DNA of 63,713 nt, the filler included, from Kipferlia bialata (lineage: Eukaryota), in NCBI GenBank assembly GCA_003568945.1. It is 3 parts of 3 records of this genome, joined end to end, with 100 filler letters (N's around TTAATTAATTAA, not from the genome) between each part and the next. Parts side by side here need not be neighbours in the genome. Positions count along the whole stretch, not along the records: positions 24,173 to 48,241 come from BDIP01000240.1; 2 more parts are not named here. One strand, written 5' to 3'. The translations under genes were made by a program, and so were the position numbers. The notes under the pieces were generated by a model, which was given only the letters and a program-made list of their open reading frames with translations, was not told the DNA's origin and ran no database searches. Positions within the stretch are counted from its first letter, which is position 1. The number at the start of each line of letters is the position of its first letter. Below, one piece after another: positions 10,491 through 53,865 of the stretch.

Positions 10491-10604
10491 ACAGGTTAAC
10501 TAGGGATACAGGGTGAAAAAGAGCAAGGTGCAATTTGTGACCGTACAACAGGTTAACTAGGGATACAGGGTGAATAAGAGCAAGGTACAATTTGTGACCG
10601 TACA
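10491..10604. repeat. Tandem direct repeat, 2 x 57 bp
   Basis: ACAGGTTAACTAGGGATACAGGGTGAA(A/T)AAGAGCAAGGT(G/A)CAATTTGTGACCGTACA at 10491-10547 and 10548-10604, with 2 mismatches. Confidence 0.95.
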
Positions 10605-10772
10605 ACCAACTGCCACCGATCTGTGTTTGTCAATAAGGGGTTAGACAGTTCGCTGCGAAGTAGCCTCTCTTCTGAGAGTGCATGGGAAAAGCAGGGTAAG
10701 AGAGTGCATTGAATGTCGAGTGAGTAACTGTACAATATTGAGACAGTGATATGTCTCCGGGCAATTCACCAG

Positions 10773-24072: not shown

Positions 24073-24171
24073 NNNNNNNNNNNNNNNNNNNNNNNNNNNN
24101 NNNNNNNNNNNNNNNNTTAATTAATTAANNNNNNNNNNNNNNNNNNNNNNNNNNNNNNNNNNNNNNNNNNN
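24073..24171. other. Artificial contig join: N44-TTAATTAATTAA-N43
   Basis: Six-frame stop linker at 24117-24128 inside an N run. Confidence 0.93.
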
Positions 24172-24277
24172 NCCCCCCCAAATACGACGCCCCCCCCCCC
24201 CCCCCCCCCCCCCCTTTGCCGGTCCAGACTACCTTCCATAGTATATACTGTATATATATATATATATATACTCTAAC

Positions 24278-24734
24278 CTTAGTCTTGGCACCCCTCTCCC
24301 CTTGCTGGTACATACTCTGAGGCAGCATCAGCATATATACCTACTGTATACACAATATATATTAATATACTATTACTATGTACTTACCTTAGTCTTGGCC
24401 TCCTTCCCCCCTTGCTGGTGCATACTCTGAGGCAGCATCAGCATCCAACCTGTTGATGACAAAGAACCTATTGATGACAAAGAACGGAGTGACCATCGGG
24501 GCAGAGGGCTCATTTGGAGGTATGTGCATATATATATAGTGTTTAATTACAATACAACATAGGTATATGTGAATCATTTACAACCACTTAACCCCAGTCA
24601 GCACCTCCTACAATGCTGCTGATGACTCTGATGACTCCAACTGGGGCCCATCCCTCTGGTTCTCGCACGAGGGTATGGATATGTGTACATAATCTCTTTA
24701 CTTAGTAATTAGTAGTTTTGTTGCATACATGTGG

Positions 24735-24771
<37 letters not shown>

Positions 24772-26638
24772 ATCTTCGTGTCTACCCTAGTCTTACCCCT
24801 CAGCTGACCCCGCTCTGTTCACACTGGGAGAGGGCACATCGACATCAGGTATATAGCATATTCATTAGAAACATTGGTATATATAAGTATTTATAATGAG
24901 AGAGTATTTGGATACGTGTTGTATGTCTATTCCTTCTATATAGATTGTTCACACTGGCAGAGGGCACATCGACATCAGGTATATATAGCATATTCGTAAC
25001 TAATATTGGAATATATAGATGTATAATGAGAGAATGTGTATAGATACGTGTAGGATGTCTTTTCTATCTATATTGATTGTTCACACTGGCAGAGGGCACA
25101 TCGACATCAGGTATAGGATTCATATGCATATTTCAATATATATGTATATATATATATAGGTTAGAATCATTCGTCTAGCTATATGTCTACTGGCGCCAGG
25201 TTCGTCCTTCTCCTTCAACTGGTAGTACTATGTGTACTACTTGTATCGATATAGCTATATGACTAAACCCAGGCTCTTCCTTCTCCTTCTCCAATGATAT
25301 CTATCTCTCTCTCTCTCTCTCTATATATATATACATATATACCATATGCAGGCAATATGTAACTGACTCTAGGCTCTTCCTTCTCCTTCACCAATGACGA
25401 TGACAGCGAGGGGGTGCACTACACTAACCGGAGATACAGAATGTACGTGCATATATATCTCTCATGCATCTTTGTCCTTTGAAAGTGTTTGAATCCGTCT
25501 TGTGTCATGTTCAAGCGTTCATTACTGTGTCCTTTGTGGTGTCTCTCTCTCTCTCTCTCTCTCTTTCTCTTTCTCTCAATCGGCAGTATCCCTCTTCTGA
25601 CTCTCCCACCTGGTTACAACGGTTTATCGTATGTTTGACATTTCATTGAATGTGTATGTTTCAGAAGTACTATATGCGTCAGTGTGTACCTAACCCTCAG
25701 CCCCCTTCCTTGCAACAACACTGTGTCTGAGACCACCTACCCATACATATATATATATCAGTTATAAGTCTGACCATTAGCCCCCCACCTGGTAACAACA
25801 CTGTCTCTGAGACCACCTACCCTCTGACAGATGTGGGTGGGACAGAGACTATGTACCTGACAGGGAACGGTTGCACAGGTATACCTATATGTATGTATAG
25901 ATTGCTGTTTACTCTTTACAAGTTGACAGATTCATGTACCTGACAGGGAACGGGTGCAGGTTACTATATATGTGTATAGTACAGATACATATTTACAGAG
26001 CTTCTCTCTTGTTGTATCCTCTCTCCCTCACCCTAGGTGTCTATGCCACTGCTGGCGTCGATGTCACTGACCTTGGCACCAGGGTGGGCACAGTGTTTGT
26101 GTCATACCTCGGTGCAACATATGCCACAGACGTTGCATTCGAGATTGGGTCATGCGCTAGGCTGCTAGTTGATGACAGGTGTGTATCTATACATGTATAT
26201 ATCTTAAATTAGTACATATCTTCTCTATACGAGGTTGGGTCCTGCGCCAGACTGATAGTTGACGATAGGTATGCGTGCGTCTGTGTTTATGCCTCCCTAC
26301 TCTCTCTCTAACCCGTAGGCACATCGACTCCGTCATCTCTTTCTCTCTCTATCCCCCTCTCTCTCTCACAATATGTATGTATATCTCTGACCCCTAGAGA
26401 CACCGACTCCGTCATCACTGATATGACCAATACCTCTCTCTCTATATATGTGTATATACAAATATGTATATATGTGTGTAATCCTAACTCACCTCTAGGG
26501 ATATTGACTCCGTCACCGTTGATGTGACCAATGCATCAGTCCCTCTCTCTACCTCTATGTATACAGACACCTACCTTACCCCTAGAGACATCGACTCTGT
26601 CATCATCGATCTCACCATTGCCTCTTATTCTCTCTCAT

Positions 26639-26684
<46 letters not shown>

Positions 26685-28604
26685 CCTCCCTTACCCCTAG
26701 AGACATCGACTCTGTCATCATCGACCTCACCAATGCCTCTGGGGGTGACGCTGCCTCTGCGTCTCTAGTCCTCGAGGCACTCTTTGCACCCAACGTGGCA
26801 CCCCTGCTCGTGGGGGGGACCAGTGTCACAGCCAGGTATTGCTGTTACTGAATGTCATATATGTATGGTTATAGTGTTATACCGACGTGGCACCCCTGCA
26901 AGGGAGAGGGACTAGTGTATCAACTAGGCACGTCCAGGATATATAGATAGTACATGTAGTAGAGTACGTATGGACCTAATACCTAATACCTAATGTGTTG
27001 TGAGAGGGACCACCGTCACAACTACGTATGCTAATGTGAATGGTATATAATCTAGAACGGTGATTGTATTCACTAACTGTAGAAACATCCAGGGTGGCTA
27101 TGACATGTTTAGTATCGTGTATAATGTGTGTGAGTATTTAGTATTCGTGTGTGTGAATATGTATGTTTCTATATCTACTTACCCCAGGAACATCCAGTGT
27201 GGCAATGACCTCTCCTTCACCTTTGGCACAGAGGAGTACCAGAGGTCACTGTACATCAGCAGTGCTGGCGTGTCATCCTGCATGGGTGTGTATCTGTGTG
27301 TATACATAATGTATGAATATACAGAGATATAGTGATTGTGAGCAGTATAGACCACTGCGCCTTAATGTTAATTAACACTCATCTTCGTGTACAGGTTCCT
27401 CTATTTTGCCCAGTTACCTCACCCTCAGTCTCCTCTGACGATGGCTCAGCCCTCTCTCAGAACAATACCCTTGTGTACGGGTCAGGGGACGTTGCATGGT
27501 GAGATAGTGTATATGTATAGTGCATTCATTCTGACGATATCAGCCTCGGACCTCTTTCTACTCGATGAACACTACGATATATGCGTATATACTGGAAGAG
27601 AGTATGTAATTTTATACCTGCCTATCTCAGCAGTGATGTCTCGGACCCCTCCTTCTCTATATACACTACTTTCTCTCTCTATATATATATGCTACTCATT
27701 ACTAGTGTAGATAATAGTCTTATCCTACGTACTTACCCCAGGGGTGATGTCTCGGACCCTTCCAGCTACTCTCTAGGATTCCCCCAGATGCCCAACTCCC
27801 TTGGAAAGGGTAAGTGCTGGAATCAAGTGTTAAGTAATCTTTTCATACATGTTTAGGGTAATGTGTTTACCTCATGGTTGTATTTAATACGTTTACCCCA
27901 GTTGGCGATCTCGACTTCTCGTGGGTGTACGAGTGTATATGTATTTGTATATATATGTAGTGTGTGTATTATGTATATATATATATATAAATACATACAA
28001 ATGTGTCTTATCCCAGTTGGCGATCTCGACTTCTCCTGGGTGTACAGCCGCAAGGAGTTCGAGGAGTTCCCTCTGGTAAGTGGAGACTTTGCATATATTG
28101 TCTCGGTGTACATATTCTTCTAGTACCACCAGATACTCAAAATAATGTATGTTTCAGTGTATTCACATTGGCATGTTCTTTTAACTAGCAATTCTCTATC
28201 CCTCACCCTTAGGTCATGGACTTCCCTGAGATATACCCCTCCGATGACTTCTGGAACACTATCATGACGGAGGACGCCTCCGAAGGTAAGATTATCACTA
28301 CTATAAATACATTTACATACAGCGTATTCTATAATATACCCCTCCGATGACTTCTGGAACATTATCATGACAGACGACGCATCCGAAGGTACAGCATGCG
28401 TAGTATTAGTGTTGTTCATAGTCTATTTGTGTTTGTACTCTGCACTGACTTACGGGACCACTCTGACAAAGGACTCAATGCATCTTAGTGAGTGCTATAT
28501 ATTTGTGTATATGTAAGTGAGTACTGTATATATGTATAATAGTCTCCCCACCCGTAATTAAAATTGTATATACCTATATTGGAGTGTATCTATCTATATC
28601 TATG

Positions 28605-28660
<56 letters not shown>

Positions 28661-30506
28661 TGTGTATGTATGTATGTATTACTCTCCCTCCCACCCCCAG
28701 ATGACATTGAGTATGCCAATGCCCTTGCCGACCTAGCCTCTCTCACTAGGGTGGTCAGAATGCCAACACTAGGGGTCCAGGGATCAGGTACCAAAATGTG
28801 TATGAGTACACTAACTATACCTATACTGTATATGAACGTATGTTTATATTGATATAGTGTGGTCAGAATGCCAACACTCGGGGTCCAGGGGTCAGGTATA
28901 CATATAGATATATATAGACATACATATATTCATTTGGTAATACATGGAATAGCTAGGATTCCACCGGGTCAGGTAGGGACATGTGTGTAAGTTCGACAGT
29001 CTTCATTCGTATATATTGATCTCTAACACCCAGATGGCACTGAGAACCTCATGATGAACAGTGGACTTCTCAACATCCAGATTGGATCAGGTGGGGAAAA
29101 TACAGTGTCTATATACAGTCAAGTAGTCGTGTTCACACCAGGTGAGCTGGAGCTTGGTGCACTGAGCCGGATGGAGCCCAATCAGATCACAATCTTGACC
29201 AGGTATTGATATGGTATATAGTATTAATGAGTATCTATCCAGCCAGATCACAGTGTTGACCAGGTATAAATATGGATTATAGTGGTTTTGACTCTTTCAG
29301 TACCAAGGAGATATATGTTATCTTGGAGTTCATCTCACCCCAGTTCCTCATGTGCCGATGGGTGCTCCGCATTTGTACTGGGCGTTCAGGAGCAGGTAGT
29401 GTTTCATACTATACATGGAAATATACATGTTGTGACTCTTGGTCTGGATTTACTAACATATCCCTCTCTTCCTCTCTCTCTCTCCCTCTCACCCTACAGC
29501 GTCTAGGCCATTGATGTTGTCACCATTGGTGTTATATACTTGTTTAGTTACATATATAGAGCGTGACCTCACCCGTAGCGTCTAGGCCACGTTGTCACCA
29601 TCGGTTTGGATGGCCAGACCACAGCTGGTGCCAAGGCATCTGTCCTGGAAAGTGTTGGATACTCAAAGTCTCTCACCAACGGTACGAGGATTGATGTGTA
29701 AGAGTAGATGCACATATACATGCACATACTATATATATGTCTCATTCACTGGCTCCCTCAATGGTATAGTGAATATATATGGTAAAGTATTTGAGTGTAT
29801 AAGAGTGTAATCTCTATATCTGTTAGAACCAATTGGTGTATTTACATATTTCGCTGACTCCAGGTATGTACACTGTGCCCCGTGCCGTCACCGCTCCCAT
29901 CGCCAACTACGAGGTACAGTTATGTGTATATTGTATATATATGTATTGTAGTTCCTTTGTGGATCGCGTAGCTATTCTGACCCCTAGGCCTTTGCCGACT
30001 GGCAGAGTGAGACCGACACCCCTCCCTCCATGGTTGGATCCACCCCCTCATTCGCACCCAAGGCAGAGAATGGTACGGTCTCTCTCTCTTTTTCTGAGAT
30101 ACTATTTCTAGGTTCATATATGTTCATCTTTATACTAGTTTCGTCTAAAGTCGGCATTCTTCTTCTCTTCTTGTCTATACCCCAACGCGCTCTTTCAATG
30201 TAGTGTGTCCCATTTCCCATATTACCTATGTGTCTTTGTACCTCACCGTATCTTGATTATTTGACTTATTATAGTTTACTCATATCTCCATTAACTATTA
30301 TTTACCGCAGTGATACCACTGTTTGCATCCAGTGTGGCCACTAACCTCGTACTATTTACGTGTATTATACGTATATTATACTTATATATATCTTCTTATT
30401 AGTTATGTATATTATTTGTGTAGTACTCAGATATATATATAGTTATTAACCCCAGTGATACTCAAGAAGGACATCCAGTGTGGGCACTGTCTCTCTCTCT
30501 CTCTCC

Positions 30507-30545
<39 letters not shown>

Positions 30546-32860
30546 GTCTCGGTTCCTATCCTTACCCCAGTGATCCTTAAGAAGGACATCCAGTGTGGCC
30601 CCAGTTGGCCAACCAACGGTGTGGACTCTGATACCCCCAGTGCTGGGGGACAGATACACGCCACGGCAGTGCTGTACAGCGAGGTAACCGTGTTCCTACC
30701 TCTCCCAATACATCATTCTGATTCCATTTTAATACTAGTAGTACTATTGTGAATATCTTGTAAATATTCCTTACTCCAGGCCAGCCTGACCTCCTCCCCC
30801 CTCCCATCCAACATGGTCACTGGGGCAGAGAGGCTCATCCAGAACAGCGGGGAGGCAACTAGTGAGTGTACGTATGTATAGAATGTATAGATAGTATATA
30901 CTGATCATATATACTGGTACTGATGCTGATGATTATCCGGAACAGCGGAGAGGCATCTAGTGAGTGTACGTATGTATGGTGTATATATAGATATATAGTC
31001 ACTGTTACTGATACTGAGAGATCCCTCTTCAGAGTGTACGTCACTATTTCAATTCATCTGTGAGATTATACTCCTGAGCGTAGCTATAATACTCCAGACA
31101 CCAATGCCGTCAGACGCATCTTCTACGGCTTTATAAGTGTATATATATATATATATATAGTTATATACGGATACTATAGATGAGATGTCTACTGATCTTC
31201 AGACACCAATGCCGTCAGACGCATCTTCTACAACGCATATGCATATATATGTATATATAGTAATATACAGATACTAGAAATGAGTTGTCTTATACAATGT
31301 ACAATACAATATCTATAGTATTCTAATCTCCAGACACCAATGCCGTCCGACGCATCTTCTACAACGCAGACCTCGACAGCTCTGTCACTGTAGACACCAC
31401 CTCTGACAGTCTGGGTCTCCCATTCACATGCGAGGTATTACAATTATACCAGTATAGTAATAGTATAATGAATATATATATATATATATACATATATATG
31501 CACTGTCACTATAGACACCACCTCTGACAGTCTGGGTCTCCCATTCACTTGCGAGGTTTTATAATAGTTCTATTGTAGTAACAGTATAATGAATATATAT
31601 ATATATACTGTCACTGTAGACACCACCTCTGACAGTCTGGGTCTCCCATTCACTTGCGAGGTAATGCAATGACACATTTTTCAATTTTCATACTACCCTA
31701 CACAGTAACATAGTATTTTCCAGACATGGTAGGCATTTATATGCGAAATAGATCCAAATCATTGCCATTATGCTTCTCACCTCCTTAAACGCCCCAATAC
31801 TTCTCCTCTCACCCCTCCAGCCCGCTGAGGGCGAGACCTCCTACACCGTCAACCTGTGGAGCTGCAGCCCTGGCGAGGGTCTGCGTCTGATGGGCCCCAG
31901 GGCCACCTGTGACTACGAGCCCCAGTCGGTGTGTGCCAACATAGTGCCCACAAAGATGGAGGTATTGTGGCACCTCTCTTGTCTCTGTACTCCAGGATCT
32001 CATCGCTATTTCAACTCTTACTGTAGGTACTCCTCCTGCCTCCTTGCCAATATCAATGTCCTCTCCCTCTCTTCTTATTCTTCTCTCTCTCTCCATCTAT
32101 ATGTTAATATTAATAGTATGTTAATATATTCTTACTGTAGGTCTTCTCCTCCTACCTCCTTGCCAATGTCAGTGTCCTCTATACTCTCTCCTTCTATCTC
32201 TATCTATATGTATATATATCCTCTTATCTCAGGTATATATTCATCCTACCTCCTTGCCAATGTCAATGTCCTCTCTCTCTCTCTCTCTCGGTCTATCTCT
32301 CTGCCCCCTTTAACAGTAGGTCTACTCTTCCTACCTCCTTGCCAACCTCAATGTCCTGGTAGGCATGGCAGCTGTTGCCCTCCTTGGCCTCACCCTCCTG
32401 TCCATGCTGGTGATGGGTGTTACCAAGGCACTCAGGGTATGTAGATGTACTTAGCATATATATTATGTATTATATTGTATTCACCCTGCTGTCCATGCTG
32501 GTGATGGGGGTCACAAAGGCTCTCAGGGTAAGTATATATACTTTCCATTTGTATAATTGTATTGTTGTATACATTTACCCTCCTGTCCATGCTGGCCATG
32601 GGTGTCACCAAGGCACTTAAGGTACCTAGATATATACACACNNNNNNNNNNNNNNNNNNNNNNNNNNNNNNNNNNNNNNNNNAGATATATACACACATGT
32701 ATATAGTGTATCCTCTCTTGTGATATACCCATGCTGGTGATGGGGTTCACCAAGGCACTCAGGGTACGGATATGTATGATAGCATATAATTACTATTATA
32801 TATGTTGTATTCACTTGTGTTATCCATGATAGTGATGGGGGTCAGCAAGGCATTCAGAGC
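24278..32860 (+). repeat. Array of intronic exon-end echo copies (more than 30) in the S41-like gene
   Basis: Examples: donor echoes 24945-24980 and 25077-25112; four acceptor echoes 26315-26620; acceptor echoes 31098 and 31203; donor echoes 31503-31555 and 31607-31660; four donor echoes 32480-32860. Confidence 0.92.
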
Positions 32861-32980
32861 TCGGGAAGATAATTGTATATGTATATATATTTACTCCTGA
32901 TTGTTTTACTAACCCATTAGCGCAAGCGCTCCTGGAATGACGCAGGAAAGGTGGCTCTGGACCTGAGCATCGTTGTATAG
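24393..32980 (+). CDS. Type I membrane protein with a peptidase S41-like domain; more than 20 exons, 5'-truncated
   Basis: IDSVIIDLTNASGG (S41 IIDLRxNxGG motif) and EPNQITILTSSSCADGCSAF...RLGHVVTIG (compare the eukaryotic S41 motif IvILTDG.CASTC..F). C-terminal TM LNVLVGMAAVALLGLTLLSMLVMGV, then RKRSW...IVV*. Confidence 0.7.
32642..32682. other. Assembly gap (41 N)
   Basis: N run inside an echo-containing intron. Confidence 0.98.
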
Positions 32981-33315
32981 ATAGAGAGGGGGAGAGAGAG
33001 AGAGAGAGAGAGAGAGATTCCCATACTTCCGAATGAATCTCGAGTATTCTCCATGAACATTGGTTTTCCGGACGTCTCCCCTAGAGGTGTCAGAAAGATG
33101 ATTTTTGTGTCGTTGCATCTGCATTATGTATGTGTAATAGACTGTTTAGTGTGATCTCTTAAGCTTAGTTTCCTGACCTGATATAGTGATGAGAGATACA
33201 GATTTGAGCTATCAGGTCTTTGAGTGAGGGTATCTCTAGTCCCTCCCAATTGCGGGTTCGTAGTGCTGTTTGCAACACCACCTCATCCTACTCATGCCCG
33301 TCAGGCACACATACT

Positions 33316-35228
33316 ATGCAGCAACCTGTGCCAGTGATGTACACCACTCCCCTCCCTACCCAGAGACCCCCTCCTAAGGAGATGTGGATAGTACGTATCA
33401 CACATACACGCCTATCTATATATATCACAACACCAAGTGATACCCGCAAACATGCACTGATTATCAGACATTTAGCGATATCTATATATGGAGTAGAACA
33501 CATACTGCTGTGTTTTGAACTGACTCTTGTAGGTCAATGTCATCTGGTTCTTCAGTATATAGTTGAATATAGTAATGTATATAGTTACATACACGCCCAT
33601 GAATACATATGTTAATATACTCATTGTATTCTCATTGTATTGACTCCTTCAGGCCTATGTCATCTGGTTCCTCTTTGGCACACCTTAAGTAGATGACGTA
33701 CATATCTTCTATTACTGTCACAACACAGCACACATGTATTGACTTCCAGGCCTATGTCATCTGGTTCTTCTTTGGCACATTTGGCTTCCACAGACACTAC
33801 ATTGCATGGCCCGGTGTGTCTGTACCTGGCACTACACTGACTGTCCTCGCTGTAGCCAGCTGTATCCTCAAGTATGGTGCGTAAGAACATTAGTTTTAGA
33901 ATTGTCAATACTATATTAGTCTAAGATTATATTATTATATTATAATGACTATTTGTTTGTTATTCTGTGGCCAGTTGCATCCTCAAGTATGGTACGGTGC
34001 AGAGACATTCTTAGTTGTCTTCTCTAGGCACTCACCTACACTACATAAGGTGTGTCCTCAAGTATGGTGCGTAATAATTCATACACTCTATAGGAGACTC
34101 CTATTATGAGTCAACTTGCTATTAGCAAGTTGCTATACACTATTAGTGGTTGAATCTGTGGGTAGTTGTCTCCTCAAGTATTGTGCCTTGTGTACACAGT
34201 TAGGTGGTGTATATCAGTATACGTATACTATACGACGAACACATTGCGTTGGGTGATGCTCAATTACGGTGCGTATTACGCAGCGTAATTGTGATATGTT
34301 ATCTCTTCTTGTGTGACCCTCTGCTGCACTATACCTGGCTGGAAACTCTAGTGAGGAGGCTAATAGACAGTAGTTTGCCTTTTACTTCGTTAAGATAATC
34401 GTGCCTCACTCACTGTCAGTCTTCTACCGAATCCGACTGGCTCTGTACCTTGGTACAGGAATCCAGAGCGCCATAGGTAACACTAAGTTCTCCACACATA
34501 CATATGGCTGGATGCACGTATGTCACATACAGTTTATGTTGTCAATGACAATACACAGACAGGCTCTTCCTCAGCAAAGACAAACATCATCGCTATTCAC
34601 TCTAGGCATATGGTGGCTCATTGATGCCTGTCTCATTCCAACACTCGTGAACGCCGCCAACTTACAGGTAATATCACTCAGTGTTCAGACCAAATAGAAT
34701 TTAATTGAATAGTAGAATTACGTATAGATTGTTGTTTCCCACAACAAGAACCTGAGTGTGACATGTATATGGGAACCATTGGGTCTTTGATAGATAGTAT
34801 CTTCTTTTGCCTAGGAAAGATCTTGACCCCCAGACACAGGGACCTCCAGTCAAGACCGCCATTGTCGGTGGTGTTGCAACGGTAAGTGCGGGATCATTCG
34901 TATGACAATATATGTGACTTACCCCAAGGACTACCCCTCCTACCCACCCACCATGGGACAGCAGCCCCCACGCAACGCTGTTCTCAACTCTCAGCCCATG
35001 CCGCAGCCCCAGCCACCTGCTAACCCATATGCCCCTGCCACCGGACCTAACCCCAATGTTACTGCTAACCCATACCCTAGTGCACAGCCCAATCACTACC
35101 ACCCTCAACAAGAGCAGTACCCTGCTACTGAGGGACCGTTTGTGCAGCCTGTCACAGGATATGCCCCTGCTCCTATGCCTGTGGTACCAACATATGACGC
35201 TCCACCTCCAGCCAATGGTATGCAGTAG
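33316..35228 (+). CDS. TM2-domain membrane protein with a Pro/Tyr-rich C-terminal tail
   Basis: KEMWI|AYVIWFFFGTFGFHRHY (TM2 motif AY.LW.F.G.FG.HRFY) and GIWWLIDACLIPTLV. Last exon is DYPSYPP...NGMQ*. Confidence 0.82.
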
Positions 35229-35650: not shown

Positions 35651-38600
35651 ATGTTGGTAAATAGGGTGAGTACAGAAGCTCCACACTACTACACCGCTCC
35701 TTACCTGTATGGATACCCTCTACAGTCTTCATAGGATACTTCTGTTCAAGGCTTTGGCACAACAGATTCACTCACACATAGCCGATCCTCACAGCTGCAA
35801 TCGTGCATCTTGTGTGCACTGTGCTGATAGTTCCGTACTACCTGTCCTGTTCCTCCACCCTGGATGACTGTTGTGTACTCACTCTACACAAGGCACTTCA
35901 CTGGCTGGTTCGTCTGTCCCTCTCTCGCAGTGCGGTCTGGCACGGAAGAGCAGTCGTATTCTGGAGGAGGTACATCCTCCCCTTAGAGATGCTGGGCTCG
36001 CTCAGTGGAGTGTGTGGTCTGCTACTGTGTATACTTGGCGTGAGGGACTGGTCTACAGCTACTAACGTAGAGGCTCTACTCTGTGGGGTACCACTACTGG
36101 TATCATCTGTAGCACTTCCACTGCTAGCCAAGCCTGTCCATCCCAAGTGTCACTCTCACCTATGTGAGACATGTGGGACTCTACACGGAGCTGCAATACT
36201 GTACCCAATGGTTCTGTCTTACATTGTATCCATTGTCTCCATCACCCTTCCTGGCGACTCGCTACCCCACTTACCCCTCTGGTGTATGTTGGCCAATATG
36301 GTTATGGTATGGACTGCGCCCGTAGCACTCTACCAGCCAGCTCTGAAAGTAGCAAGGTTGCTTACACACGATGCAACTGCCGACTCTCCAAAGGAGTCAC
36401 GGTCTCCCTATAGCGAGGTGGTACTTCAGTGTGTGAGGATTCTGAGACTCTCCTGCTACACAAACCATGAAGTAGCAAGGGCCTCACTTGTGGCAGATAT
36501 ACACCAGAGACTCCTCTCTGCTGCAGAAGCGGACCCCAGTGGCAGACTTATGTTCGTTCTGTCCAACGGTTTCAGCGATCAGAGTGTTTCTGTCCAGGAG
36601 GGGAGGCTCAGACACACTGCTTGTTTGGTTCTGACTGAAGTAGAGACAGACTCACGGGAGTCACGCTCACACACTACACATGACTGTGTTGCTATCCGAA
36701 GAGTCTCAGTCGCTCACATATGCATCCTGTCTCTCCTATTGAGGGTTCACAACAAGTGGGGCTTTGGCGTAAACTACATTGTCCACAGTCTCTCTTCCAT
36801 CCTCTGGCCATCCCTGCATTCATGTATGTCTAGTCAGTGGGCCAGTGTAGCTACTAGTGAGACTAGTGTCCCAGACTCACGAGTAACTATTGGAGCAGAC
36901 GAGCTACTCCGTGTTATACAGGTAGCAATCACATTCTCTTTAGTACTATTCTGATTCTCTCTGCTGCTGAAATGACTTACTTTGATACTCTGTGCCAACT
37001 TCAAGTACTCGTTGGTTACCATATATACAAATATCAATCCATATTGTATGTATTTCGTTTCTTCCCTAATTGAACAGGAAATGACAGCAGATCCAACGTT
37101 TTTAGTGATGCACAGCAAGCTACACGCACTAGGGAAGTCGGTAAGGCGAGGCACACTGTACAGTTTGGAGCATCACGATGGGGAGTACCAGGGATTCCCT
37201 GATGCCATAACAGGGCAGCACAGACATCCGGACCTACTCGATACCAGCAAGGTAATGAGACTCAATGTCTGTCAATAATTACATGTTATATACAATTACC
37301 TAACAGTAGGAGAACATCGACAGAGCAATCTTGGCATCAGCCACTTCTGCTGACATGATATCCACTGGAACCAGCACCCTGTCTCTACACGATGCCCTTG
37401 ACTCAGAGATCAGTACCTCAGGGTCATTCTCCTGGTCACCGTCCTCAGAGATTCTCCTCTCTCCTGACCCAACCATGGAGTGGAAGGTTCCCTACCCGAG
37501 ATGCAACATACCAGAAGGGTACCACGACCATCACATGTCAATGGATCAGAGACCGGATGGGCCTATAGTGACAGCCAGACATAAGGTGCCCTGGGACAAT
37601 GCAAGGCCGCTCCGTGGGAGCTATATGATGGCATATCGTAAAGGTAAGAACACTGAGATAACTGTGGGAGTATGTCTCTTTCTGTATAGTTCCTTACCTA
37701 TACAGATGTGCGAGTGCATTTCTATAGTGCACGTTAGACACCAAGTCTGACCCATCTAGATGCTCGCAACAGCGCATGTATCACTGTGTACCGTTCATGG
37801 TTGGATCTGCTTGGGGTGCATGGCCACCTGAAAGAGATCAATGAACTCAGTGCATTCCCAAAGAACGTGCACCCGGAGGACCTCGCAGAGGTATTGACAA
37901 CAAATTCAGTTTAAGCTGACTGCCATACAATGATTATGGCTATATGGATACTGGTGCTATATGCAGAGGTAACACTCACTGTGGAGGCTACTTGGGTAGT
38001 AAGGGAATGTCTAATAGTTCACTTGTATCCCACGCCACTGCATTTCATAGGATTACAAACAACGCTCGCAGAATCCAACCTCAGACATATGCAGCTCTAG
38101 AGAGCGCTGAGAAGAATGGTATCTGGCTTGCACACTACAGACAGCTGGTACCGACAACATACCCATATGGGAAGTATGTCCACATGCGCTCAATTGGGTA
38201 CGTAGTGTGATACTACAGAGCCATGATCTACACTGAAGGTTACATCGTGTCATCTTAGTAATATAATGAGACTCTTACATCAGGCATGTAGTGCGCTACT
38301 CTACCAGTGGACGGGCGTTGTTGCTGGCGGGTTACGCTGAGAAGATGCCACACCCAGATGACTTCACCGTGACATCTGGGTCATCTTGCAGAGACTTTGG
38401 ATCAATCAGGTATATATGCATTATACAGTAGTTTACTACTCTGTTGTCCGGGTCCACCATGTAATTGTATTGTACGACATGATGGAGTGCGGTGTTGTAA
38501 CTACACAACATCTTACCCCCAGTGAGTGCATCAATGCCTCCTGGACAAGTGAGCAATCAGCAGAGACCCACCAGGAAGTGGACTCTGTCTTCTCAACAGC

Positions 38601-41184
38601 CGTGCTACAGAGAATGATGCGTCCTGCGTCGTGTCCATACTCCCCATCTCACAATGCTCTAGACCCAGATGCACATCGTAAGACATTCATGAGCATGTGG
38701 GCTCTGGAGGAGCGGGAGAAGCCACCTAGGCTGCCAGCGGACATGTTTAGGAGGTCTCCAGTTGTAACGTGTGACCATTGCGTTGACCAGCTGCTGATCA
38801 AGTACCACAAAATGTCAGGTAGGTTGTATGCTACATTATACCTGTATGTTCCAATATCCATAATGTACATCTCTCACCTATATGTATAGATTACTAATGA
38901 CAGTGAACAAGAAGATACGAGCCTCGCTTGTGAACGCTGCAACGAATGAGAACTTCGATGCAGCTCTGTTTGACAAGCAGCTAGGAGGCTTTGGATTCGG
39001 GTGAGACTCAATGATACACTCCACCACATTAAGCGAATCACGTTTAGCTAGTCAACGACTACTGCAAAGTGAAGAATTGACTATACGCACATCTAACGTC
39101 AGATGGTTGTATATCTTTGTCCACATCCAGCACTATGTGTTGAACCCTGGCCCAATGCGAGTGTCACTAAGGGACTTGGTTAGGCTGTTGTTCACTATTT
39201 ACAGGTAAGTGATTTATAGTTGTATTGAAATTTTTATCTCTTTCTTTTATTTTCATTCACTGGTAACACAACTTGGAAATTGAACCACGGTCTCTGAGTG
39301 TCTCTCAGTAAGACTCTATCTCTGTCAACACAACTGCGATTCGACGCCTGTGATTGAGGCACCTTCCGTACCCCTTACCCTAGTCTGCACCGCAACAACC
39401 CCTTTCATAACGCCATTCACTCCTTGGACACGCTCCAGATATCTCTTGTGATGATGTACAGTATAGAGAAGTGTCCGGGAGGCACTGTGTGGATGCCGTC
39501 AGTGCTACGGGCACTCACTATGCTATCAGCAGTGTGTCTCAACATAGACCATCCTGGTCTGTCTAAGGTATCATACACTGGTACTAATATTGATCACGAC
39601 ACTGATACTATTGATGATCCCGATCCTGATCCTGATACTGGTTCTGAATCAGAACTTCTGAGCCTGACGTTGATACAGTCTCTATCAACTTGATACTGAC
39701 ACTGATGCAAGGACTACCTAGTGGGTACTGATAACCCTGTGGCCACAGCCTATGGCAGAGAACGTCCTATCCAAATGCAGGTCAGTCTTCACAGAGGATG
39801 CATACTTCACTGCGGAAGACTCTTTGCCCATGAACGGTCTCAACATGTACCTCATATATGTGATCATGTCTCACTCTAGGCATCAACCCTCGCTGCAGCT
39901 GTGTTCCGCGGCTGCAACATACTCCCACGGTCAACTGTGGAGATCAACCTCGTCAGAGACCTGATTGTGTCTACGAGCTGTCATAGTGCCAGGGACACTC
40001 TCTTCCAGCTACGTAGACTCACTGCTCTGCCATATACTCCAGCTCCGTGGAAGGAGAATGAGCTAGTCTCTGCTCTGGTAGATAGAGAGAATGGGCTAGG
40101 TATACTATACATATTCATATGTATGTGTATTTGCACTATGTAATCTATATTCTGTAACAGCACTGACTACAGGACATGTGCAGTACTTGACTGCAAGATC
40201 CGTGCTCATGGTGGCATCTATGGGCTGTATGGCAAGAGAGTGGCCCATAGCCGAGGTAGGTGATCTTCGCAGTAAAGCAAGCGAGATTCTTCTTTAGTCT
40301 CTAAATCCATTGCTTGTGCTTCCTCTAACCACTGGTGTTTGGCATGCAAAGACTGAGATATATTCATTGCTGGAACTAACCACAGGTCTTTGGCAGACTG
40401 AGGATGAGGGAGGAGTATGCCTCTGGTGCACATGAGGCAGATGCAGGGCTGATAGTGCCTCCATGTAGGTACGAGACCCAACGCCTCTCTCTACTAGAGT
40501 TGCAGGAGTGTATACGAGCCTTACTCCAAGTATGAACTTTCGCTGTAACCTTCAGGATGCTGCAGATGAACCACAGCACCGAGCTCGATGCAGCCATGTA
40601 CCAGGCAGAGTATGTGAGGGAGAAGGTATATATATATGGTATAAATACATTATAGAAAGTAACACATATTGATATATAATACAATATAATATACAATAAT
40701 GTGTATAATAGTATATAGTAATGTATAATGATGTATGCCATGTACCAGGCAGAGTACATGAGGGAGAAGGTGCTGCCCCATGTGAATATAGTATATATAG
40801 TATATATAGTATATATATATTATATAGTGAACATGAGGGAGAAGGTGCTGATACTATAATACATATTGATATATAATACATTATAGTATTTTATAATGTA
40901 TATAATATATAATGTATATGAGGGAGAAGGTGCCCCATGTCAAGAAATACACCCACCACATATATATAGTATATATATGCAGCGCAAATTTATTAATAAT
41001 ATACAATATATATAGATTTCATTAATAGGAAATATATATTAATACGAAGGTGCTGCCCCATGTCAAGACATACACCCACCACATGCGGAGACTGGGAATT
41101 AGGGGTGCAGAGCTGGTGGGGGAGAGGCTGACAGAGAGGGCAGTTAGGAACAGGGAGAGGTGGTTGCATTGTAGTAGCCAATAG
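35651..41184 (+). CDS. Multi-TM protein with a C-terminal class I cyclic-nucleotide PDE domain, likely catalytically dead; start approximate
   Basis: N-terminal TM ORF 35803-36954. Later motifs NNPFHNAIHSLDTLQ, SAVCLNIDHPG, LVRDLIVSTS, VLMVASMGCMAREW, EEYASGAHEADAGL and RNRERW follow PDEase_I order. Confidence 0.75.
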
Positions 41185-41681
41185 TAGCAGGCCTTTCTTC
41201 GGCTCAGCGGTTAACACCACAGCATCAAGGAGGGTGTGAGATATAGACACCCTATCTCACTATATCTCACTACATCATATATGGTCCACGTCAAACTATA
41301 CAGAGTGATACCCGAAGTAATTGAATAATACATGCGACACAGTGTGAGATTGTACGGTGCATATGGGACCTAGTCATTCTCAGCAAGCATTATAAGACAC
41401 CGTCACAGTGTTAGGTTGCAATGAGAGAGACAGAGGCAAGTAATGACATTGTCACATCGGGTTTCACCAAACATTGTCACTGTGTCACAGTGACAATGTT
41501 GTCGTGGAAACAAAAAAATTACAGACCCTTTAGTCAGCTCCCTGCCTGTTTGGTGGCCAGGAAGCCTCTCTCCTCCAAAGGCCTCTGTTAGAGACAGAGT
41601 GACCTCATCAGCTTCATACCCACACCAATAAGGAGCCCTGCACTACTTCTATCTAGCTAGTGCAGCCGTTATTGTATCTAG

Positions 41682-46717: not shown

Positions 46718-47586
46718 TCACTCCTTGATGCTGTTACTCCGCTTCCTGTGCTTCCGTCTCTTCTCCTTGACAGGCCCAGAGGGGGGGGCGCTAGGGGGGG
46801 CGCTGGGAGGAGCGGTAGGCTTGCTAGGGGGAGCAGTAGGCTTGCTGGGGGGAGCAGTAGGCTTGCTGGGGGGAGCGGTAGGCTTGCTAGGGGGAGCGGT
46901 AGGCTTGCTAGGGGGAGCGGTAGGCTTGCTGGGGGGAGCGGTAGGCTTGCTGGGGGGAGCGGTAGGCTTGCTAGGGGGAGCAGTAGGCTTGCTAGGGGGA
47001 GCAGTAGGCTTGCTAGGGGGAGCGGTAGGCTTGCTAGGGGGAGCGGTAGGCTTGCTAGGGGGAGCAGTAGGCTTGGTTGATGCGGTGGATTCAGTCTGTG
47101 CTTCTTCAGTGAGACCTGACTCCGTCTCCGTCATGTCGCCCATGAGTATCTGGTCGATGAGGGCCTGCGTCTCGGCCTCCTTCTCTGATACCTGGTCTGA
47201 TACCTGGTCTGGGGTGGTGTCATGTGAGTCATGTGAGGATGGTAACTGTACATCCCAGGCGGCATCGGCAGCCGAAGCAGCCTGTCTCTCTGTCTCCCTC
47301 GCTGCCTCCTCTAGGGCCAGTTGACGATCCCTCTCTCTCTCCCTCTCCCTCTCCCTCTCTCTCTCCCTCTCTCTCTCCTCCTCCAGTCTCACTTCCTTCT
47401 CAACCTCAGCCTGGATCTCTCTCTGCCTCTCTGCCTCTCTCTGCCTCTCTGCCTCTCTTTCCTCCTGCTCTCTCATCCACTCCGCCTCGGCCTCTCTTTC
47501 TCTCTCTCTCTCCTCCTTCTCTCTCTCTGCATCTATAGCATCCTCTCCCTGCCTATCAGCAGCATCGGCCTCTCCTCGGTACATGC
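46718..47586 (-). CDS. Terminal exon of a hypothetical coiled-coil/Pro-rich protein; upstream exons not present
   Basis: Acceptor CTCACTTTCAG at about 47587-47597, then an open frame to TGA. E/R-rich, followed by KPTAPPS repeats. Confidence 0.65.
46802..47074 (-). repeat. Coding minisatellite, 13 x 21 bp (KPTAPPS)
   Basis: Unit AAGCCTAC(C/T)GCTCCCCC(C/T)AGC; variation is confined to third codon positions. Confidence 0.95.
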
Positions 47587-48241: not shown

Positions 48242-48341
48242 NNNNNNNNNNNNNNNNNNNNNNNNNNNNNNNNNNNNNNNNNNNNTTAATTAATTAANNN
48301 NNNNNNNNNNNNNNNNNNNNNNNNNNNNNNNNNNNNNNNNN
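48242..48341. other. Artificial contig join: N44-TTAATTAATTAA-N44
   Basis: Six-frame stop linker at 48286-48297 inside an N run. Confidence 0.93.
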
Positions 48342-49475: not shown

Positions 49476-52400
49476 ATGTCACTGGGTGGCCTTATCGTGT
49501 CGCTGGCTGTCCTGCTGGCTCTACTGGGAGGCTCGGTGGCACTGGGAGCGGACAGGGACTGTACACAGGACGACCTTGTCCAGGTATGTGCCACAGTAAT
49601 GATGGAGTCGATCATGTCATGTCTGTTCAGGTTGCAGTATGTTATATACATCCCACGTGGAGTACAGAGCCATCGTGGGTTATATATGAATGTATACTGG
49701 ACTCTCTGTTACCAGAACCAAGTACGCAGTTGTATTGATTCTCCATACACCTCTACCCTCAGTATGTCACTGCATGTGAGGAGGGCCAGCAGTACATCAT
49801 CTACGCCATCCCCTCTGCCGCAGAGTGCGTGGAGGGGGAAGGCTTTGTGGTGCCTCCCCCGGTTGGGGTGGAGTGTGGTATGAGGTATCAGTGTTACGTT
49901 GTCATATAGCTAGGGACCCAGACTGACCCTGACACCAGGTGTGACCCAGGTACGTACATTGACACGAGGGAGGGGGACCTGGCCGCAGAGGCTGTGTGCA
50001 CCCCTTGTGAGGGAGACGAGACGTCCATTGGGGGGGGTGATGTCTATGACTTCACCAAGCTGACCTCACTGCCACTGGGCTTCAACACACTCTGCTCCCC
50101 AGGTATCGACTGTATATATATGCAAATGCCACACCATGGGTCTGGTCCCTCTCTCTCCCCCTCTCTCCCCCTCTCTGTTACTTCCTTACTTGGTCTCCAC
50201 TCCATGTCCCTTACCCTAGATGAGACCCTCCCCGAGGGTGCCTCAGGGTGTGGGGAGGGCTGGTCTGTCCAGGACGGGTCTCTCGAGTGCACAGGCACAG
50301 GTATCAGTGTCAGCGCGTGTCTATGCTCTGTATCATACCCTACGTATGGTACTGTCCCCGTCACGCACTCACCCCAGGCCTTGGCTACACCTCCTCCATC
50401 TACTGGACTGCTCTCTTCCTGGTCAATGGAGAGCTCAGGGTGGACTTCCGCACCCTGGCAACGCCCTTGCTGGACCTTCTGGAGGTGCGTGGATTCCCTG
50501 GTGCTGGTTCTCCCTCTCTCTCTCTCTGTGTCCCTTCTGACCCCAGGTCCGTATCAACGGCGTCCTACTCGACAGCCTGTCCAGCGGGGCAGACGTCGGA
50601 GACAGCATAGAGGAGGTATCCACAGACACTATATACACAATGTGTATTACACATGTCCCCGCCCTCCACCCACCCCAGGTGGACTGGACCCGTGCCACCT
50701 ACCCCGTGCCCCCTGGCAAGCACCGCATCGGTCTGTCCTATGCGAATGAGTCAGTGGGGGACCTGCCAGAGCACGACGTCCAGATCAGACGCATAGAGAC
50801 ATACGGCACAGAGGCCCTGCCGGATAGATGCGGGCTGTGCCCCGCAGGCACATCCCCAGACCTAGCCCCCGAGACAGGGCCCGAGGAGGGGGTGGTCTAC
50901 ACGGGTAGCTGCACCCTCTGTCCCAGAGACACCTACTCACTCACGGGGGCTGAGTGTGTGCCGTGTGGAGATGACCAGTACGCACCGGTCGGGTCCAAGC
51001 AGTGCCTAGACAGGTATGTGGGTGTATGTTTATGCTATAGCGTGTGGGTTCGTACAATGATGCAGCTATTGTATCATTTCCCCACCATCAATATAACTCC
51101 CACCCCTAGGCTGGTGCCCTGCACCTCTGATGACTTCACCCCTGTGTATGGGGCATGTACTGAGGGACCAGTGGCATATGTGGGAGAGAGGCACGTGGAG
51201 GGCTTCGTCCCAGTGTTCCCTGTTGTGTGTGATGTCGATGCATACACACACCCTGCCCTGCCCTCAGTGCCATGTTCACTGTGTGAGGGCACACACGTAT
51301 ACGACAGAGAGGCCGGGGAGTGCGTCGAGTGTGAGGCAGGTGGGTCAACCAGGAGTATACCTGAAATGTTTTTTTACACGGTGTGAGCCCATTTCTCTAT
51401 ACCACCTTCGTTCGCTCACCACCCAGGCCAGTTTGGCAACCAGGATACCCACCTGTGCGAGTGGTGTCTGCCAGGCACTGCGGCTATGCCCCTAGTAGCC
51501 TACGAGGCCCTGCCCGCCTTCCCGGACACCTTCACGTCCCAGGTCTCTGACGAGGATGACCTAGGATGGTACATGGGGGGGGAGGGAGAGATTGTGTGTG
51601 GACCGATCCACAGGTGGGGGTTGGTGTGGATGTATCCCTGTTACTCACTGTTGTCTCTTAATACTATACTATAACCCCCCTCCCCTCCCTAATGATGCAG
51701 GAGTGGTCAGTATGCCTCCCTTAGCATCGATGTCCCAGCTGGGTCCACCTCTGTGGCCATCGACATAGACACAAGGTGCCCGGTGGGGGACCCAGACGTG
51801 GTGGCCCAGTGCAATGTCAACCTGGGTGGGTGCTGATGATATGGATGTGGATTTGGATGTGGGTTGATGACCATACCCCCCCCCCCCCCCTCCCCTCACC
51901 GCCAGGTGTCTCTGTACTGTTGAGTGGCCTCCAGCCCATAGCTGTGGTGGCTGCCAATGCCGTCTCCACCGTGACCACCCCTGTGTCCACCAAGAACAGA
52001 CACACCCTGACAGTCAGGGTGGCCAAGATCGGCTCAGATATGCAGGGTACGGTGGGGGCGGGTATCGGCTCTCTATACTCTTATGCTCTTCTGACACAGG
52101 TACCGATGGAGACAAGATACTCGATATGGTCGTGTCCGTTGGAAAGGTGCGTTGCCGATGGATATGGTGTTGTATGGTATAATATAGTGTAATATTCCCT
52201 GGCCTGTGTAAGCCTTTGATATCTACCCCCCAGGTTCTGATATATGGTGGTCAGAGTGTGGAGTGGCCTGGGGACCGGTGCACCACCTGTCTGCCAGGGA
52301 CGTACTCCTACGTAGATGCCACCCTTGAGTACATGGCACAGCACGCACCCTATACAGTGACCGAGATTGGTGACACCTCTGTCTCTGCCACCCAAACGGG

Positions 52401-53865
52401 GTCCAGCCTATGTAGATCATGCCCCAGTGGGTACTTCAGCAATGCCACTACGGGGACAGAGACATGTGAGCAGTGCGAGATCAACACAGTGGCCCCGTTC
52501 CTAGGGCAGGAGGGGTGAGGATAGGACTTCTCATTTCGTATCTCATCCTACCCCTCACCCCCCAGGTGTGTAGAGTGCCCAGCCTTCAGCTCCAGTGACG
52601 ACGGTGTCTTCTGTGAGAGTGTGACTGAGTTTGAGATGGAGGACGGCATGTCATTCAACGTCACAGGCCTCAAGGACCTCGGTGGGTGCCTATATGTATA
52701 GGACAGTGCATATGCTATGTCGTCTCTAATATACTACTAATATGTCCCCCTCACCCCTAGGCATGTTTGGACCTGTCAAGGATGACACTGATATGAAGTA
52801 CTATGTCTCCATCGGCCACAACTCAGACGCTGCCTCTCCCTGCAATGCAGGCAGAAGGGACCTCACGGAGGTGGGAGGCCAGCTCTCTACCCAACCCCCC
52901 CCCCCATCCTCCCCTTCCTCACCCCAGGCCATGGCGTGTCAGGTCGAGCCCCTCTCCCTGGGGCCCTACTCTGCCGTCACCCTGCGCCCCACCGTACACT
53001 CCACTGGCAACATGATGACATTCACGAGACCGGAGGGGGCAGAGCCCGGGGTGGACGTGACACTGTGGGGAGGTATGCATGCAGAGATAGTAGTGTATAT
53101 GTCTGTATGCGTCTCCCCGAGCCCTGACCCCAGGCGACCTTTGTGCCCACAACCAGCCCAGACAGACCCTGATCCACCTCCTGTGTGACCTCACTATGGG
53201 CACCGGCACCCCACAGGCAGGGGCTGGGCCATCGGAAGACGGGTCCTCCCTGGTGGAGACTGCGCCCTGTCTGTACGAGTTCTACTGGCGGTCAGTGTAC
53301 GGGTGCAGAACCTGCACGCCTGAGGACTATATAGTGACAGTGTCAGAGTGTGTGGCAGGTACTGCTTTGCATTGATTATATCACACCTTAGTTCATAAGG
53401 TCTAATACCCCAATCACTCTCTAGCCCACCCACCGCCAGGTCTTCAGACAGTCACCACCCAGTGGAACGAGGACTCTGTCCTACAGCCCAACGGACACTG
53501 CAACAGGTGGCTTAATCTGTCAGACTGTCTATCGTAATAATTAACCTAACCTCAGGTTCGCGTCCCCCCTCCCCGCCCCCTTCACCCAGTCCTGCAGCAA
53601 TGGGCCGGACCCCGTTGCCCTCTACATCTGCCTAGCCATCATCGCCATGTGCGTCGTGGCCCTGGTCTGTCTCCTCAGGCAGTACTCTCTGCTCAGACGG
53701 GACATCCTCTCGGGTGAGCAGGACTCTGCGCTGGTCGATGGCAACCAGAGCTCAGAGCGGTCCCCCCTTAGAAGGAAGGCCTCCATAGGACAGTCTCCAC
53801 AGTACGCCACAGGGAGTCCCAGCCTGCCAGAGCTACAGCCCAGGCTGGGGTCGGGGGACCTGTGA
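49476..53865 (+). CDS. ELAPOR/KIAA1324 (UPF0577)-like Cys-rich type I membrane protein
   Basis: Signal peptide, then CTQDDLVQ|YVTAC, CDPGTYID...CTPCEG..TSIGGG..YDF....LPLGF, CPAGT, CPRDTYS, CTSDDFTPVYGAC and CPSGYF, then TM ALYICLAIIAMCVVALVCLL. The Cys pattern matches ELAPOR proteins. Confidence 0.75.

Follow-up and report, generated by a model that had tools for sequence, protein, structure and literature searches.

A candidate intron gain by duplication and AT-rich filler in a phosphodiesterase-domain gene of Kipferlia bialata

How spliceosomal introns originate has long been debated, and for most of those gained no source can be identified (PMC4974935, PMC3443670). The question takes a concrete form in the Kipferlia bialata gene KIPB_001638, whose last predicted intron, one of 124,912 introns in the assembly (PMC5874029), contains the exon 13|14 junction in three copies, each uninterrupted by an intron. 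Was this intron created by duplication of a coding junction, or did an older intron acquire the copies later? We analysed a window of 63,713 nucleotides, filler included, which consists of concatenated contigs; the N-flanked spacers at 24073-24172 and 48242-48341 carry stops in every frame, and the focal contig spans approximately 24173-48241. Coordinates along the window are collected in Table 1.

Table 1. Location of intron 13, its internal parts, the host gene and one comparator intron.
Feature	Coordinates	Strand	Details
Host gene KIPB_001638 (protein P0001, 703 aa, 14 exons)	37081..41184	+	exon model translates exactly to P0001
Exon 13	40556..40625	+	last codon AAG (Lys659)
Intron 13 of KIPB_001638 (predicted)	40626..41049	+	last intron; 424 nt; phase 0; GT to AG; AAG|GT junction; from the gene model
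Intron 13 donor	40626..40633	+	GT = exon 14 bases 1-2; filler from +3; strength 41st of 82 (median)
Filler F0	40628..40729	+	GC 0.15; homologous to F2
Junction copy 1 (-39..+14 of the spliced junction)	about 40730..40783	+	46/49 over the aligned part; 14 nt rightward exact
Filler F1	40784..40830	+	GC about 0.11
Junction copy 2 (-14..+6)	40831..40850	+	identical to copy 1 over 20 nt; agrees with the junction at 17/17 positions (-11..+6)
Filler F2	40851..40913	+	GC 0.10
Junction copy 3 (-16..+35)	40914..40961	+	46/48, with 3 nt deleted after the junction
Filler F3	40962..41045	+	GC 0.15; contains the putative branch point
Predicted branch point (YTNAY, A at 41042 = -8) and AAG acceptor	41039..41049	+	last 4 nt = exon 13 end; acceptor 3rd weakest of 82
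Exon 14 (44 codons and stop)	41050..41184	+	P662, L686, N693 and W697 invariant in 9 paralogs
Comparator: neighbouring gene A, intron 7	26836..27187	+	second, weak candidate for a copy spanning the junction (26882-26937); GT-AG core of 57 nt further inside (27026-27082)

A query with the phosphodiesterase (PDE) exon returned a single protein match, K. bialata KIPB_001638 (P0001), at 100% identity. This protein has a weak PAS_3 match and a degenerate PDEase_I domain (Pfam) at residues 430-671, so that the exon 13/14 junction, at 659|660, falls inside the domain. The HD metal-binding motif of catalytic class I phosphodiesterases is missing, and because LN replaces these metal ligands in the alignment to PDE7A, P0001 is likely a pseudo-enzyme. 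Together with P0002-P0013 it forms an expanded K. bialata family of degenerate PDE-domain proteins, some of which have a PAS region. Just 5' of the annotated start lies a hydrophobic, stop-free frame of 390 codons (35782-36954) that gave no match to Pfam or the protein database; since the paralogs carry long N-terminal extensions, this frame may be a missing first exon of the gene. The interval that separates the PDE gene from the gene after it contains a perfect inverted repeat with arms of 15 nt and a spacer of 1 nt (41470-41500).

The earlier note had placed the intron at 40626..41049, at an AG|GT proto-splice site, and this placement holds; the intron runs from GT to AG at an AAG|GT junction. 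Splicing at 40625/41050 we infer from the public gene model, from the extent of the PDE domain across the junction and from conservation among paralogs. The model is no direct proof of splicing, since AUGUSTUS predicted it with the help of transcriptome hints (PMC5874029). Nine K. bialata paralogs (KIPB_001216, KIPB_005365, KIPB_000207, KIPB_004056, KIPB_001102, KIPB_002431, KIPB_003101, KIPB_000935 and KIPB_002874) align through the junction, and four of the seven invariant columns lie in exon 14. Retention of the intron would lead to a stop after 9 codons, and the inner AG acceptors would lead to stops after 29, 4 and 31 codons; the inner copies also have no branch-point motif within 16 nt before their AG. 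For both reasons we discarded the possibility that the inner AG|GT copies serve as acceptors. Only the acceptor at 41050 has a branch-point motif, and it yields the conserved C-terminus of 44 residues. With its GT-AG ends and a predicted branch point at the spacing that is usual in this organism, where the branch-point A sits at -7/-8 in 58 of the 82 introns that we modelled, intron 13 has the ends and the branch-point spacing of a U2 intron. Its acceptor, called atypical in the earlier note, is indeed weak, but the YTNAY motif lies at the usual -8, and AAG acceptors are present in two further modelled introns.

The composition of the intron sets it apart. Its GC content (0.25) is the lowest among the 82 modelled introns, the median for the 12 other introns of KIPB_001638 being 0.42; its initial 30 nt have the lowest GC and its final 30 nt the lowest C content of the whole set. 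About 130 of its 424 nt (approximately 30%) derive from exon sequence, and the remaining 70% or so is AT-rich filler without exon match. This filler contributes donor positions +3 to +6 and contains the branch-point motif (41039-41043), and the present donor scores 4.2 versus 0.9-2.9 for the donors of the inner copies.

That the intron contains three intron-free copies spanning its own junction, with AT-rich filler between them, had also been noted before, and our analysis confirms it. The copies score 90, 34 and 80 (copies 1-3), whereas the best of 2000 junction shuffles reaches 34; copy 2 by itself only draws level with this null maximum, and it is the 20-nt identity to copy 1 that supports it. 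Over the aligned parts the copies are about 94-100% identical to the spliced junction, a divergence of approximately 5%. All three read ATG at a position where exon 13 reads GTG, and they therefore diverged from exon 13 as a group. Among the fillers, F0 and F2 are homologous (score 70, maximum of 52 in 300 shuffles, none of the 81 other introns reaching 70; p = 0.003), which indicates that filler was copied together with the junction at least once, at the DNA level. The other five of the six filler pairs show similarity at chance level; an F1-F3 homology, apparent by eye, was rejected as not significant. Successive junctions are spaced 144, 75, 85 and 120 nt apart, matching the periods of repeats that we found in other introns of the window.

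These other repeats were characterised in seven gene models built by hand, with 82 introns in total, and counted when their score was reached by none of 820 shuffles. By this threshold 23 of the 82 modelled introns carry 'echo' copies, of approximately 100 nt, of the end or the start of a flanking exon, a figure that is not an unbiased rate because four genes were picked for showing repeats (two were picked as controls) and only part of the window was modelled. The load is uneven, with 16/24, 2/5, 1/13, 2/3, 1/1, 0/18 and 1/18 echo introns per gene, and intron 13 is the sole one among the 13 of KIPB_001638. The gene at 24393-32980, in our own model a membrane-anchored protein of 25 exons, has up to five echo copies in each of its 16 affected introns, in strong contrast to the gene at 49476-53865 with echo copies in 0/18. 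A protein search with an exon of gene A gave no match; as the protein searches with the upstream open reading frame and the gene A exon were both negative, the models of the non-PDE genes are our own. Introns with echo copies have a median length of 359 nt versus 86 nt for those without, each copy adding approximately 110 nt, and the echo periods outside intron 13 (n = 45) range from 54 to 142 nt with a median of 99 nt.

Outside intron 13 the echo copies are one-sided and keep the splice site: allowing for small offsets, GT follows 19 of 22 exon-end copies and AG precedes 22 of 23 exon-start copies. The usual template was therefore unspliced sequence. In 13 of 43 cases the filler next to a copy can be recognised as the end of the intron itself, in most of the others it cannot, and just 2 of the 67 other echo fillers are as AT-rich as those of intron 13. 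Five introns besides intron 13 are two-sided, and all five follow the same order of exon-end copies, GT-AG core and exon-start copies; this inner core measures 50-141 nt in the five, with a branch-point motif in two of them, and 0 nt in intron 13. At the echo acceptors themselves the branch-point motif is kept in 16 of 23 cases (echo introns across 24849-34419 and 235-1138). A scaffold gap of 41 N (32642-32682) lies inside an echo intron, and the number of echo copies there is therefore uncertain. The window also contains a tandem repeat of a 21-nt coding unit on the minus strand (PTAPPSK; 46809-47080) and a 57-nt two-copy tandem repeat away from modelled splice sites (10491-10606).

Differences between echo copies and the working exon are mostly synonymous, with a pN/pS of 0.31 over 48 copies after dropping matches scoring below 26 and two weak internal matches. 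When each change is counted once per family there are 63 synonymous and 75 non-synonymous changes (p = 0.2), and these counts, which like the pN/pS were obtained with one exon boundary of a modelled gene misplaced by a single base, fit neutral copies combined with evolution of the exon; coding selection on the copies, or an origin from diverged alleles, was not accepted. The data are compatible with the copies being snapshots of earlier versions of the exon. A possible second junction-spanning copy was found in intron 7 of gene A, where a diverged exon-end copy is followed by 8/10 matches to the next exon in place of GT; after the first base these are 7/9 matches, with p about 0.001 before correction for about 22 copies. 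Apparent junction-spanning matches in introns 5 and 23 of gene A were not upheld by a one-sided re-analysis.

What does the zero-length core of intron 13 say about its origin? When a duplication runs over a splice site, the original continuity stays in the innermost position, and as each copy here passes directly from exon 13 into exon 14, the site probably lacked an intron ancestrally. No remnant of an older intron is visible: both ends consist of filler, and their GC, C content and acceptor strength lie near the bottom of the 82 introns. Hence it is probable, though far from certain, that a duplication together with AT-rich filler created intron 13 at an AAG|GT site and that re-duplication followed. 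It remains a candidate gain because it is one unpolarised case with inferred splicing. K, Q or E precedes 21 of 26 other phase-0 introns and is found at the intron 13 column in one of nine paralog proteins, a weak indication that is confounded by protein constraint; the corresponding paralog counts are 6/7 for intron 9, 5/8 for intron 11 and, low as well, 2/6 for intron 8. A nested-duplication order test passes but is uninformative, as 30 of 36 permutations pass too. In metagenome contigs, 48 pattern matches included no confirmed relative, and the junction motif had no match. Finally, intron 13 is the 3'-most intron of KIPB_001638, where reverse-transcription events are expected, and this counts against a gain.

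The earlier note had proposed gain by tandem duplication, with the first copy supplying GT and the last AG. Gain at an AG|GT site stands as the best-supported reading, but not the pure tandem-duplication model, because some 70% of the sequence has no exon origin and because filler holds both the predicted branch point and positions +3 to +6 of the donor. The AAG|GT junction and the 6-nt direct repeat at the intron ends agree with the proposed supply of GT and AG, but with a terminal repeat of only 6 nt the part of the last copy in providing AG rests on 4 nt, and 3 of the 82 introns reach a repeat of 6 nt (10 reach 5 nt). The proposed tie between the window-wide echo process and this intron is supported.

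Intron 13 is best read as a hybrid of two known types. Like the introns of the Rogers tandem-duplication model, it sits at an AG|GT site and would leave the peptide unchanged, with GT and AG taken from a duplicated motif (PMC3265369, PMC3629103, PMC4974935, PMC3443670), and multi-copy Rogers-type cases in yeast contain internal proto-splice-site repeats as intron 13 does. However, a Rogers-type intron is a duplicated exon and inherits its branch point from that exon, whereas in intron 13 the exon-derived copies make up the lesser part and are parted by AT-rich filler, in which the predicted branch point also lies; on intron composition and branch-point origin it is not a member of this class. 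The break-repair neointrons of Daphnia pulex carry AT-rich inserts (78% AT, compared with 85-90% AT in the intron 13 filler) and terminal direct repeats of 4-12 bp, a range that includes the 6 nt found here, a length to be read with its occurrence in 3/82 introns; the 'staggered-then-staggered' later rounds of duplication and insertion described for Daphnia also resemble intron 13 (PMC4202315). Of the Daphnia-type features, intron 13 has a filler GC of 0.10-0.15 versus 0.42 and internal repeats beyond chance. The Daphnia repeats are nonetheless shorter, 4-17 nt against 20-54 nt on both sides of the junction here, and the Daphnia gains are polarised by intronless alleles and cDNA (PMC4202315), while the putative gain of intron 13 is unpolarised.

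Duplications of exon-intron boundaries in potato RdRp (PMC4974935) and in the 37-bp VNTR of human F7 IVS7 (PMC1557585) resemble the one-sided echoes of the neighbouring introns; these are single-gene cases, whereas the Kipferlia window has 23 such introns among 82 in genes partly picked for repeats, and the focal intron is without a parental intron. A further parallel is given by the local tandem duplications and multi-copy patchwork insertions of break-flanking sequence made through polymerase theta in C. elegans helq-1 mutants, which are attributed to aborted recombination finished by polymerase theta or to iterative template switching (PMC8654963). They differ in measuring from ~100 bp to 10 kb (median ~1 kb) and in arising in a repair mutant, and the available text describes no intron formation (PMC8654963).

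The following course of events seems most likely. An exon 13|14 site without an intron would have suffered a break or stalled fork that was repaired independently of Ku, possibly by aborted homologous recombination finished by alternative end joining. Metamonads are without Ku70/80 and DNA-PKcs, and hence without Ku-dependent non-homologous end joining, while alternative end joining is full, partial or absent depending on the species (PMC8516963). Approximately 40-80 nt around the junction would have been copied and filler inserted at the new joint, at ~75-145 nt per event. GT and AG would derive from the duplicated AAG|GT, whereas positions +3 to +6 of the donor would stem from the filler, as would the branch point; AT-rich filler can provide a YTNAY motif by chance. 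Such an event inside an exon would survive only when spliced out. More rounds may then have duplicated junction and filler through the same local process as the echoes of neighbouring introns, and could have swapped a weaker exon-derived donor for the present one. By joining the outermost donor to the sole acceptor that has a branch point, the spliceosome would produce the same mRNA as before the gain. This preference for the most upstream donor is assumed, after human F7, where the most upstream of several identical donors is used (PMC1557585).

Two alternatives keep an older intron at this site. The insertion of spliced cDNA, already raised in the earlier note, would mean that such an intron captured spliced mRNA or cDNA, by RNA-templated break repair or aborted intron loss through reverse transcriptase, and that the echo process later amplified the piece. 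That intron 13 is the gene's last and its only one of 13 with echoes would suit this origin, human cells can use spliced RNA as a template when they repair breaks (PMC12065846), and one capture followed by duplication would fit the F0-F2 homology. Yet RNA-templated repair is reported to delete whole introns (PMC12065846), an old intron should have left ordinary ends instead of the extreme filler found at both, and the 45 other echo copies mostly keep GT or AG and so point to an unspliced template; we retain cDNA capture as an unlikely explanation, its standing lowered by the filler ends and the unspliced templates. Without any RNA step, an older intron with 6-nt end repeats could have been skipped by microhomology in a template switch, or an allele lacking the intron could have been copied. 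In worms and flies, microhomology makes the loss of an intron more likely (PMC3698931). The 6-nt end homology of intron 13 is equalled in two others of the 82 introns, that of gene A intron 7 amounts to 5 nt, and on the left side intron 13 and gene A intron 7 are among only six introns in the set that reach 4 nt or more. Since a gain predicts end homology equally, and since a skip requires three switches in a single event or a separate intronless allele and leaves the loss of all ordinary intron sequence unexplained, we regard it as unlikely too.

Might there be no intron to explain? A recent duplication insert that is unspliced or poorly spliced would have left a broken or truncated allele, as the weak acceptor, the AUGUSTUS origin of the gene model (PMC5874029) and a PDE domain already without its HD metal ligands could suggest. 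All 14 exons nevertheless form one intact frame, exon 14 keeps four of the seven paralog-invariant columns, the branch-point motif lies at the usual distance and the copies are old enough to have diverged by about 5%, and we give this possibility little credence. An assembly artefact seems less credible again, even in a region low in complexity and in a draft assembly made from short reads with SPAdes (PMC5874029): substitutions and a deletion distinguish the copies, both among themselves and in comparison with the exons, the differences in the echoes follow codon structure, and with no exact match longer than 20 nt no long repeat was available for mis-joining.

If intron 13 was indeed gained by duplication plus filler, it keeps the pre-intron sequence inside itself, among many one-sided products of the same process. 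In the open-access literature searched, supplements aside, we found no report of echo introns in Kipferlia, and the string 'duplicat' does not occur in the genome paper (PMC5874029). That paper favours ancestral intron richness and allows for independent gain (PMC5874029), and a gain-loss analysis did not include Kipferlia (PMC6759080). The origin of intron 13 bears on whether the intron-rich Kipferlia represents the ancestral state of a group in which the parasitic Giardia and Spironucleus are almost intronless. As a speculative extension, which we consider doubtful, Kipferlia may have an active duplicate-and-fill process that, at ~100 nt per event, extends introns outward from their splice sites and creates new ones at exonic AG|GT sites, so that many introns would keep a nested record of their birth. 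If this is true, a sizeable share of the ~125,000 introns of K. bialata would be lineage-specific gains and not ancestral.
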